Sequence record: OQ626344
DNA length: 64,000 nt
Origin: Escherichia phage S127 BCL3
Strand: one strand, 5' to 3'
Part shown: in pieces, positions 1,601 through 2,411 of the stretch
Layout of the letters: every line of letters begins with the position of its first letter
How positions within the stretch are numbered: position 1 is the stretch's first letter
Position numbers and translations under genes: made by a program
Notes under the pieces: generated by a model
Databases searched by the model: none
Told to the model about the DNA's origin: nothing
What the model saw: the letters and a program-made list of their open reading frames with translations, nothing else

Positions 1601-1677
1601 GGTCTCCACGGAGTGATTCGAACACTCGACCTCCTGATCCCAAATCAGGCGCTCTACCAAGCTGAGCTACGCGGAGT
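1601..1677 (-). tRNA. tRNA-Pro (anticodon TGG)
   Basis: Cloverleaf by eye: 7-bp acceptor, T-arm GGTTCGAATC, anticodon loop TTTGGGA, encoded CCA. Confidence 0.7.
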
Positions 1678-1687
1678 ATTTATTATT

Positions 1688-1762
1688 TGGTGGCCCTGGG
1701 TGGAATTGAACCACCGTCTGGCGATTATGAGTCGCTTGCTTGAACCTTCCAGCTACAGGGCC
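1688..1762 (-). tRNA. tRNA-Met or tRNA-Ile2 (anticodon CAT)
   Basis: Acceptor GGCCCTG/CAGGGCC, T-loop TTCAATT, anticodon loop CTCATAA. Confidence 0.65.
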
Positions 1763-1763
1763 A

Positions 1764-1839
1764 TGGTGCTGATGGCAGGACTTGAACCTGCAACCTATTG
1801 ATTACAAATCAATTGCACTGCCAATTGTGCTACATCAGC
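1764..1839 (-). tRNA. tRNA-Thr (anticodon TGT)
   Basis: Acceptor GCTGATG/CATCAGC, T-arm GCAGG-TTCAAGT-CCTGC, anticodon loop TTTGTAA. Confidence 0.65.
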
Positions 1840-1846
1840 AAAAGGT

Positions 1847-1942
1847 GCTAGGTGATGGAATCGAACCACCTATGTATTCAACGACTACCTCGTCTATTTT
1901 CAGGATTAAAAATCCTCGCCCTTGCCAAAGGGCTTACCTAGC
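1847..1942 (-). tRNA. atypical tRNA-like gene with about 30-nt extra arm; anticodon ambiguous (UUU if loop is UUUUUAA)
   Basis: Perfect 7-bp acceptor GCTAGGT/ACCTAGC, D-arm GCCC/GGGC, T-arm GGTGG-TTCGATT-CCATC; anticodon stem AGGAT/ATCCT leaves only a 5-nt loop. Confidence 0.45.
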
Positions 1943-2040
1943 GCAATATGTTGACCATGTGGCTAGTCGGCGATGACGACTGTAACATTTGATAATCCGG
2001 TTCTGCTTCCGGCTTTCGCTTAATTACAAGGTCAACAATG

Positions 2041-2131
2041 TGGCGGAGAGTAATGGAATCGAACCATCATCGAGTCATCCTCAACGGGACGGTTTTCAAG
2101 ACCGCTTGAGCACCATTGCTCCCTACCCTCC
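2041..2131 (-). tRNA. tRNA-Ser (anticodon TGA), class II
   Basis: Acceptor GGAGGGT/ACTCTCC, anticodon loop CTTGAAA, long variable arm, T-loop TTCGATT, encoded CCA. Confidence 0.65.
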
Positions 2132-2246
2132 TTTATAAATTACACTGATAATGACACTGATTTTCGAGCAGTTAGTGACTAGTATAAACGACGATAAATA
2201 TCAATGTCATTATCTGTATGATTTATGCATTTAAAAAGATAAATTT

Positions 2247-2332
2247 GGTGGGGAGTGGTGGAGTCGAACCACCCGAGTCGCAATGACAATAGATTTACAG
2301 TCTACACCGCTACCTCTACGGGATAACTCCCC
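2247..2332 (-). tRNA. tRNA-Tyr (anticodon GTA), class II
   Basis: Acceptor GGGGAGT/ACTCCCC, anticodon loop CTGTAAA, variable arm, T-arm GGTGG-TTCGACT-CCACC. Confidence 0.65.
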
Positions 2333-2336
2333 AATT

Positions 2337-2411
2337 TGGCACCCCGTACTGGACTCGAACCAGTGTCAACGGCTTAGAAGGCCGCTGCTTTATCCACTAA
2401 GCTAACAGGGC
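2337..2411 (-). tRNA. tRNA-Arg (anticodon TCT)
   Basis: Acceptor GCCCTGT/ACGGGGT with G-U pairs, anticodon loop CTTCTAA, T-arm ACTGG-TTCGAGT-CCAGT. Confidence 0.65.

Follow-up and report, generated by a model that had tools for sequence, protein, structure and literature searches.

A known tRNA cluster of an rV5-like coliphage with two predicted non-standard RNA components

Among the described phage tRNA loci, the closest analogue of the one analyzed here is the tRNA cluster of phage T4, in which a set of eight tRNA genes is packed tightly on one strand, two stable RNAs, rnaC and rnaD (the former with a T-arm-like hairpin), are embedded among the tRNAs, the homing endonuclease SegB is encoded within the cluster, and the RNA ligase and kinase are encoded elsewhere. 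The P1/P7 tRNA operon encompasses genes for tRNA-Asn, tRNA-Thr and tRNA-Ile2 as well as, in P7, an unannotated tRNA-Ser(UGA), and phage T5 encodes anti-defense tRNAs that are copies of nuclease-targeted species. For the Vequintavirus group itself, the rV5 genome paper (Kropinski et al. 2013; PMC3606486) lists six tRNAs (Arg, Tyr, Thr, 'Met', Pro and, identified with ARAGORN, Ser) and already contains the codon-usage argument for AGA, ACA and CCA. Here we describe the corresponding cluster of Escherichia phage S127 BCL3 (sequence record OQ626344), which occupies positions 1600-2411, on the minus strand, of the 64,000-nucleotide (nt) stretch of DNA that was analyzed (hereinafter, the window). 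In all likelihood, this interval is a Vequintavirus tRNA operon that consists of six canonical, CCA-encoding tRNAs and two non-standard RNAs or, overall, a known feature of an ordinary kind in which two RNA components lack an explanation.

The initial annotation, made from the sequence alone, had delineated seven minus-strand tRNA genes in this interval, several of them encoding CCA, with the anticodons called by hand. A search of the whole window with ARAGORN yielded exactly seven minus-strand tRNA genes, all within 1600-2411, in the same order and with all seven anticodon calls matching; CCA is encoded in the sequence of six of the seven, the exception being the gene at 1844-1942. Covariance-model scoring did not reject the candidates either: six genes reach or exceed the gathering cut-off of the Rfam tRNA model (RF00005; 29 bits), with E-values for the cluster spanning 3.6e-15 to 0.033 in the whole-window search, and only tRNA-Ser falls below the curated cut-off. 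Beyond the cluster genes, ARAGORN and Rfam searches of the window detected no further tRNA and no Rfam family at the gathering score.

The six canonical genes, all on the minus strand and all with an encoded CCA, are those for tRNA-Arg(UCU), which reads AGA (2337-2411; 67.8 bits with the Rfam tRNA model); tRNA-Tyr(GUA), a bacterial class II tRNA with a long variable arm and A73 (2246-2332; 29.9 bits, barely over the cut-off); tRNA-Ser(UGA), which reads UCA and for which ARAGORN gives a full class II cloverleaf with G73 (2041-2131); tRNA-Thr(UGU), which reads ACA (1764-1839; 77.1 bits); tRNA-Ile2, with the anticodon CAU, which reads AUA (1688-1762; 60.0 bits); and tRNA-Pro(UGG), with C1-G72 and A73 (1600-1676; 66.4 bits). 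The tRNA-Ser(UGA) gene is not reported at the Rfam gathering score, its best match in the clan being tRNA-Sec (41.5 bits, with the cut-off at 47); its identity to the unannotated tRNA-Ser(UGA) of P7 is 90%, and that to the tRNA-Ser of T4 is 70%, and tRNA-Pro(UGG) is 82% identical to its T4 counterpart. Most of the tRNA genes are separated by gaps of 1-11 nt, the exceptions being the 114 nt between tRNA-Tyr and tRNA-Ser and the 98 nt that follow tRNA-Ser.

The 1.1 kb around the cluster are 99.9% identical to the respective regions of Escherichia phages ECP32 and EduardKellenberger (Vequintavirus, rV5-like myoviruses), full-length matches to this region were found in more than 100 related genomes, and related GenBank records carry these genes as annotated tRNAs. 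Because the tRNAs are annotated in relatives and six of them are listed in the rV5 paper, the cluster of this rV5-like coliphage is already published and annotated in GenBank; taken alone, it offers no novelty, being a textbook example of decoders that a lytic phage encodes for its over-used codons. The gene order is identical to that in the rV5 set and in the Vequintavirus annotations, at 98-99.9% identity, but the rV5 paper lists the CAU gene as tRNA-Met and omits the seventh gene (PMC3606486), whereas here these genes are assigned to tRNA-Ile2 and to a tRNA-like RNA, respectively. Absent from the literature that could be searched are a family-wide analysis of this tRNA-like RNA and a conserved element that also occurs in lambda and P7, both of which are addressed below.

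As judged from sequence, the window shows the T4 type of operon, a tight cluster on one strand that serves host-rare codons, with structured non-tRNA RNAs in between, so that the two non-tRNA RNAs described below parallel rnaC and rnaD. Five anticodons are shared with T4 (Arg-UCU, Ile-CAU, Thr-UGU, Ser-UGA and Pro-UGG), and repair-type genes likewise lie outside the cluster. The differences are that the tRNA identities between the two phages are only 64-82% and that T4 encodes tRNAs for Gln, Leu and Gly and none for Tyr. As in the case of SegB in T4, an endonuclease gene is found in the cluster of a close relative of the window phage: in VB-EcoM-WM (L285, 247-588), tRNA-Pro is absent and an open reading frame (ORF) for a 113-aa HNH endonuclease is located in its place, and an HNH gene is likewise found inside the tRNA cluster of the relative SEW_6S. 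P7 carries a two-part module of the window, namely tRNA-Ser(UGA), 90% identical, followed within ~25 nt by the conserved element; P1 and P7, however, belong to a different phage family (temperate, with a plasmid prophage), their closing-helix sequence is different, and they lack the tRNA-like RNA. The P7 tRNA-Ser(UGA) was detected with ARAGORN at 1391-1477 of the analyzed P7 segment (AF503408, L004), is absent from the GenBank record and scores 46.6 bits with the Rfam tRNA-Sec model.

The CAU gene, left as Met/Ile2 in the initial annotation, resolves to Ile2 and not to Met. When 5,426 complete E. coli genomes were searched with this gene, the best E. coli match was annotated as tRNA-Ile, and never as tRNA-Met, in all 25 records sampled across the ranking of 5,430 E. 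coli records, and comparison with the K-12 tRNA-Ile shows identity of acceptor positions 1-6 and 67-72 and of the 15-nt anticodon arm (GCGACUCAUAAUCGC). Because its best matches in E. coli are tRNA-Ile genes and its acceptor and anticodon arms are identical to those of the K-12 gene, the CAU gene is, by sequence, a tRNA-Ile2 gene and not a tRNA-Met gene, with the reading of AUA presuming the lysidine modification of C34. The C4-G69 and C5-G68 pairs, which are determinants for TilS, are present as well. The BASEL submitters also labelled this gene Ile2, and the 'Ile' gene of T4 is of the same kind, so the label to be used by annotators is tRNA-Ile2.

A sigma-70-type promoter (TTGACA-17-TAATAT; 2498-2470, minus strand), which was identified by a consensus scan with 10 of 12 matches and is located 59 nt upstream of tRNA-Arg, probably drives a single minus-strand transcript that passes through an 89-aa ORF and ends at about 1228-1196. 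This ORF (1284-1553, minus strand), taken from the ORF list, lies directly downstream of tRNA-Pro and is probably co-transcribed with the tRNAs; it belongs to phrog_8729 (unknown function; E = 8e-44) and showed no match to a Pfam family. At 1196-1228, on the same strand, RNAfold predicts a hairpin that precedes a U6 run and resembles an intrinsic terminator (stem of 11 bp, -16.9 kcal/mol, z = -2.7); it was missed by the consensus scan. Host tRNA-processing enzymes would cut the transcript into Arg-UCU, Tyr-GUA, Ser-UGA, Thr-UGU, Ile2-CAU and Pro-UGG and would also free the two non-standard RNAs, a tRNA-like RNA and a 96-nt three-helix RNA, the latter probably released by 3' trimming of tRNA-Ser combined with an RNase P cut at the next gene. 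The spacer between tRNA-Tyr and tRNA-Ser is filled by a long imperfect hairpin (2135-2226, minus strand) with 30-nt arms that are 83% complementary and a 32-nt loop (RNAfold -26.1 kcal/mol, z = -4.45); it is annotated as a 'repeat_region' in phage nomo and might be a site of RNase III-type processing or, alternatively, a region with an internal promoter. A motif common to the operon promoter and the spacer proximal to tRNA-Ser was not found, the promoter motif being single in the window. A 14-nt inverted repeat (1594-1607 and 2454-2467, 86% complementary) brackets the whole cluster, perhaps by chance; through it, the very start of the putative operon leader would base-pair with tRNA-Pro, namely with its 3' acceptor strand, CCA and trailer.

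Codon usage was compared between 29 long ORFs of the window (7,675 codons) and 38 long ORFs (12,990 codons) from 45 kb of E. coli K-12 processed by the identical method. The phage-to-host ratio of the frequencies per thousand codons is 9.3 for AGA, 3.1 for ACA, 2.6 for AUA, 1.6 for UCA, 1.4 for UAC, 1.3 for UAU and 1.0 for CCA, with AGA, ACA and AUA among the top five over-represented phage codons. AGA accounts for 21% of the Arg codons in the phage ORFs compared to 1.9% in the E. coli sample, and Lys codons amount to 72 per thousand compared to 44, with AAG 3.1-fold up. The whole-genome figures for rV5 are 26% versus 5.1% for AGA and 35% versus 14.6% for ACA, and the results for the window agree with those in the rV5 paper for AGA, ACA, CCA and TAC (PMC3606486). 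Codon supply is a good explanation for Arg-UCU, Thr-UGU and Ile2 and weakly explains Ser-UGA. The main role of Arg-UCU, Thr-UGU and Ile2 would thus be that of decoders for codons that are much more frequent in the phage than in E. coli, which could weakly apply to Ser-UGA, whereas Tyr and Pro may constitute a reserve against the loss of host tRNAs, for example, to tRNA-cutting defense systems. Of the suggestions made at the outset, the fit of Arg-UCU and Ser-UGA to the codon bias holds strongly for the former and weakly for the latter, and the general match between the tRNA set and phage-favored codons extends to Thr and Ile2 but not to Pro and Tyr.

The seventh gene (1844-1942, minus strand), described as atypical in the initial annotation, is indeed odd and, most likely, is not a normal decoder. 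It encodes a 99-nt, non-canonical tRNA-like RNA that is reported by ARAGORN as '???' and scores 35.5 bits with the Rfam tRNA model. In this RNA, the 7-bp acceptor stem is followed by an AA or AG linker (A8-A9 in the window) with no U8, a D arm with a 6-bp stem and a 4-nt loop, an anticodon-like hairpin of 15-16 nt flanked by G..G (in the window, a stem of 4 Watson-Crick pairs and the loop UUUUUAA), an extra region (31 nt in the window) that holds a small hairpin whose length and sequence are free across the family, and a normal T arm, with a 7/5 acceptor/T geometry. Its 3' end reads ...CCUAGC-A-CC followed by UUUU, with A73 present and the final A of CCA not encoded, and among its single-stranded segments, GAAAAU and the (G/A)AAUACAUAGG block are near-invariant; the complement of the invariant GAAUACAUAGG was not detected in the window besides the gene itself. 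The gene lacks several hallmarks of a canonical tRNA, namely a 5-bp anticodon stem, U8 and a 3-4-bp D stem, and among its orthologues, the canonical 7-nt loop with U33 is not kept either. With respect to tRNA-Lys(UUU) specifically, UUU and A73 are present, and the class I short variable loop and a conserved anticodon are not. The labels of this gene in GenBank are inconsistent, including Lys, OTHER, TERM, Pseudo, ???(atcc) or none.

Five other lineages carry orthologues of the tRNA-like RNA at the equivalent position, with tRNA-Thr or tRNA-Ile immediately before it: Avunavirus (Av-05), Seunavirus (PVP-SE1, NINP13076 and Csp-D17), Henunavirus (Hena1 and pEa55), Mydovirus (KNP2) and a 58-kb metagenomic contig (L287). 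In an analysis of nine distinct sequences, with controls obtained by sliding the 3' partners by 1-3 columns, 98.1% of the cells in the proposed fold are paired compared to 33-48% in the slid controls, and 8 pairs are changed on both sides. The D stem alone includes three compensatory pairs among the orthologues, as in GCCCUU/AAGGGC, GACCUU/AAGGUC and GCGGUU/AACCGC. The anticodon-like loop, by contrast to the arms, varies: UUUUUAA in the window and other rV5-like phages, UUUAUAA in Av-05, CAUCAAA in the Erwinia phages, AAUCAAG in L287, CCCUCAAG in NINP13076, and CCAUCCAG in PVP-SE1, Csp-D17 and KNP2. When the loops are aligned from the 3' side, the only constant positions are 'U34' and 'A37'; U33 is confined to the two E. 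coli lineages and A73 to the rV5 type, all others having U as the discriminator, and the orthologue loops have A33 or C33, or a length of 8 nt, with UAU-, UCA- or UCC-like triplets. ARAGORN made no call on the orthologues, and no Rfam tRNA model matched the L287 version. Ordinary tRNA-Lys genes co-exist with the tRNA-like RNA in PVP-SE1 and L287, and so do ordinary tRNA-Gly genes in PVP-SE1 and Csp-D17; these genomes encode ordinary tRNAs of these specificities, and therefore, the tRNA-like RNA is redundant for decoding there. Most likely, the seventh gene represents a conserved Vequintavirinae family of tRNA-like RNAs in which selection acts on the acceptor, D and T arms, and the loop is free or diversifying.

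The 24 tRNA genes of PVP-SE1 are syntenic, being located between the spanin genes and the tail-fiber gene, and those shared with the seven genes of the rV5-like phages include Thr-UGU, Arg-UCU, Tyr-GUA and the tRNA-like RNA, among others. The tRNA-like RNA is thus one of the few genes common to the two clusters, with a loop that varies by genus, and a change of the loop between genera bears on the ways in which phages answer tRNA-cutting immunity. For annotators, the labels Lys, Sup or Pseudo are unwarranted for the seventh gene without evidence. The 6-bp D stem with a 4-nt loop, the long extra arm and, in three lineages, the UCA triplet resemble tRNA-Sec, which is the best Rfam model for the PVP-SE1 version (27 bits against a cut-off of 47), with an alignment to the tRNA-Sec D arm. 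The geometry, however, is 7/5 rather than 8/5, the discriminator is U or A rather than G, the window version has UUU, the lineages with UCA have A33 or C33 rather than U33, and 27 bits is far short of 47. The gene can also tentatively be likened to allo-tRNAs, non-canonical tRNAs with long arms. The fold proposed by ARAGORN, with a 4-base anticodon ('atcc') and an AUUUU/AAAAU stem, was rejected given that this helix is absent in the other genera.

The second non-standard part of the operon is located in the 'spacer' after tRNA-Ser. This 96-nt stretch (1945-2040, minus strand) is, as far as comparative sequence analysis can tell, a separate conserved structured RNA, with three helices and a score of 105.9 bits (E = 6e-27) with a covariance model that was built from nine sequences (model R1). 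The element consists of a variable closing helix, P1, around a conserved core that includes AAUUAAGCGA, a CCGG-AAGCAGAA-CCGG hairpin, the strand AUYAYCAAAUG and the hairpin G(G/U)CG-UCAUCGC-CG(C/A)C. Sequences 85-89% identical to the core are found, unannotated, in intergenic DNA of lambda, P7 and the Salmonella siphovirus ST1UNAM; the lambda copy (44,866-44,934) lies in the late-operon leader, ~75 nt after tR', and the P7 copy directly follows the tRNA-Ser(UGA) that is missing from the P7 record. The strands of the closing helix differ by lineage, being UGUUGACC/GGUCAACA in the window, GUUGUGCUG/CAGCACAAC in lambda and UAAGAGUAUUUGGCU/AGCCAAGUGCUCUUA in P7, and all 12 of its 12 pairs show compensatory changes, with 85% of the cells paired compared to 28-43% in slid controls. 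The G.U pairs assign the element to the tRNA strand which, in lambda, is the late strand. A possible 4-bp pseudoknot, GCGA:UCGC, is invariant on both sides.

Model R1 detected 82 copies of the element at 88-112 bits, with a single copy in the window, and no copy in the other Vequintavirinae genera or in the tRNA/rnaC/rnaD locus of T4 (E <= 1). Among the complete E. coli genomes, 426 of 5,426 (~8%) carry the element, in prophages and P1-like plasmids, and its 18-nt core pattern matched more than 120 IMG/VR contigs. Of the 118 copies examined, 27 sit 18-27 nt past a tRNA-Ser(UGA), and the remainder are of the lambda type, with no tRNA nearby. The element is annotated neither in any of the 30 E. 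coli records listed nor in any Vequintavirus record examined; scans of the window, P7 and lambda copies against Rfam at E <= 10 returned noise only, and literature string searches with the core sequences retrieved no papers. Thus, an undescribed, conserved RNA of ~95 nt with strong covariation appears to be present in lambda, in P1-like plasmids and in ~8% of the complete E. coli genomes.

Several candidate identities of the element were considered and rejected. Although it bears a weak visual likeness to rnaC and rnaD of T4 (a CCGG hairpin and GUCGUC), there is neither detectable sequence homology nor a model R1 match in the T4 locus. AgvB-type prophage anti-sRNAs, which map to the same lambda region, are convergent small RNAs (sRNAs) with terminators (PMC4104026), whereas the element, according to its G.U pairs, is encoded on the strand of the tRNAs and of the late operon. 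A peptide-coding role is incompatible with the 1-nt indel in the core that breaks the frame between the window and lambda types, and an alternative fold of the element, in which GCGAAUGCC would pair over a long range with GGCGUCAUCGC, is not supported, as the 3-nt linker varies freely without compensation. Outside the phage context, a scan of bacterial genomes for the element yielded 22 'genome' hits to the core (L263-L284) in unrelated taxa (Pseudomonas, Shewanella, relatives of Bacillus, Bacteroidota and others). All of these are low-coverage contigs, either ~48.4 kb or tiny, and most likely reflect contamination of the respective assemblies with lambda control DNA. In lambda itself (L003, 1120-1282), the element is preceded by a second hairpin in which a P7-type closing stem (GGUAAGAGCAUUG...CCAGUGCUCUUUCC) surrounds unrelated content, which suggests a rearranged tandem copy.

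Several points weigh against the interpretation of the interval as a single operon for codon supply with two non-decoding RNAs. Codon supply provides no explanation for Pro (1.0-fold) or Tyr (1.3-1.4-fold), and the E. coli codon sample comes from a single 45-kb region. The single-transcript model is built on consensus matches only, and the consensus scan found a second promoter-like site, 2210->2181, inside the Tyr-Ser spacer. Finally, the UUU, U33, A37 and A73 of the seventh RNA, its score of 35.5 bits and some tRNA-Lys labels are such that it may have a decoding role in the rV5 lineage. In its full form, the latter explanation, under which the seventh gene encodes a true, although unusual, tRNA-Lys(UUU) that takes part in decoding, is charged by LysRS after completion of CCA and serves the high demand for Lys codons (72 versus 44 per thousand, with the 3.1-fold excess of AAG), appears rather unlikely to us. 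If the G.G is counted as the top of the stem, the loop becomes a canonical 7-nt U32-U33-UUU-A37-A38; the UUU anticodon and the A73 discriminator represent both classes of LysRS determinants; phage tRNA genes without an encoded CCA are completed by host enzymes, as in the T4 precedent; and several GenBank submitters name the gene tRNA-Lys. However, the anticodon stem has only 4 Watson-Crick pairs, there is no U8, and the 6-bp/4-nt D arm and the 31-nt extra region with invariant single strands are not known from any tRNA-Lys. The orthologues have other 'anticodons', loops that are 8 nt long or lack U33, and U73, and co-exist with normal tRNA-Lys and tRNA-Gly, and a fit by ARAGORN requires a 4-base anticodon carried by a non-conserved helix. 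Decay of the seventh gene and of the structured spacers into non-functional remnants (a pseudo-tRNA and dead DNA) is highly improbable: one record carries the label 'tRNA-Pseudo', CCA is incomplete and the anticodon arm is irregular, but the tRNA-like fold is retained in at least six lineages at 70-75% identity, with 8 compensatory pairs and invariant single-stranded blocks, the gene is among the few shared by the rV5 and PVP-SE1 clusters, and unrelated phages retain the spacer element at 85-90% identity, with covariation at all pairs of its closing helix.

A different explanation, which we consider less likely, is that the cluster is kept mainly for counter-defense, supplying copies of nuclease-targeted tRNAs, with the Lys-like seventh RNA being a cleavage-resistant substitute or decoy. 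The known targets of defense nucleases are tRNA-Tyr (retron-Eco7 PtuAB, Septu), tRNA-Thr(UGU) and tRNA-Lys(UUU) (PARIS AriB), and tRNA-Lys (PrrC), and the tRNAs for Tyr and Pro are the two in the cluster that codon bias leaves unexplained. Retron-Eco7 PtuAB depletes tRNA-Tyr, and the tRNA-Tyr of T5 rescues infection (PMC11555353), and PARIS is neutralized by the T5 tRNAs for Lys, Thr and Asn (PMC12409363); the window encodes Tyr-GUA, Thr-UGU and a Lys-like loop. In the seventh RNA, UUU is followed by A37-A38-U39-C40-C41, which corresponds to the AriB site with the A41C change that 'substantially inhibits' AriB cleavage (PMC12409363), and the U16-U17 contact in the D loop is missing. A canonical tRNA-Lys is present in PVP-SE1 and contig L287 and in none of the rV5-like phages. 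On the other hand, the tRNA-Thr(UGU) of the window retains the host-type AriB determinants UAAUCA and U16U17, and is not visibly a resistant variant, so that a PARIS-resistance reading of it is not supported; and, in contrast to the T5 genes, which are canonical with point changes at the cleavage site, the window combines a host-type tRNA-Thr with a non-canonical Lys-like RNA. Moreover, Pro, Arg, Ser and Ile2 have no known determinant, the codons in greatest excess are those read by the encoded anticodons, and no infection data were found for Vequintavirus on hosts with these defense systems. The defense interpretation could apply to Tyr, Thr and the Lys-like RNA. The seventh RNA of the rV5 lineage may be a lysine tRNA, a substitute or a decoy. 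The most specific version, in which it is the rV5-lineage form of the Vequintavirinae tRNA-like RNA with a loop re-targeted between lineages (to a copy of the tRNA-Lys(UUU) loop, with its discriminator, in E. coli phages), does not decode, resides beside the three-helix RNA that lambda carries as well and serves as a stand-in or decoy for Lys-specific nucleases (PrrC, PARIS AriB) alongside repair genes, is doubtful in our assessment. The preferred reading remains that of a Vequintavirus tRNA operon with six canonical tRNAs and two non-standard RNAs.

The repair genes in question lie 3-5 kb from the cluster and encode a metallophosphoesterase (5348-5902, minus strand), a P-loop polynucleotide-kinase-like protein (5910-6320, minus strand) and an RNA ligase of the T4 Rnl1 family (6421-7356, plus strand). 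This T4-like tRNA-repair set, which would be in line with counter-defense, can be predicted to comprise a split RNA end-healing and sealing system. A Sir2-family protein is encoded further along (7712-8473, plus strand).

Two other regions of the window stand out by composition. A non-coding, GC-rich (52-56%) stretch at 2850-3110, upstream of a 112-aa ORF, includes a 45-nt core (GCCAACCTGTAATAAGGTCGAGCCAGAGCGCGGTAATGGGTA; ~2980-3024, minus strand) that is 88-96% identical to sequences in ~700 genomes of T4-like phages, where it is intergenic and, in phage NBG2, is flanked by the gene for an internal virion protein and by a hypothetical gene; this core has no match in Rfam. A second GC-rich (49-52%) patch, at 4380-4700, contains short overlapping ORFs only and shows a weak, sub-threshold match to rli43 (24.6 bits versus 100). 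Finally, ~18 GenBank records (MG0656xx) bear the name 'Campylobacter phage', a host attribution that looks doubtful, and show 98-100% identity to rV5-like coliphages across the tRNA cluster region.

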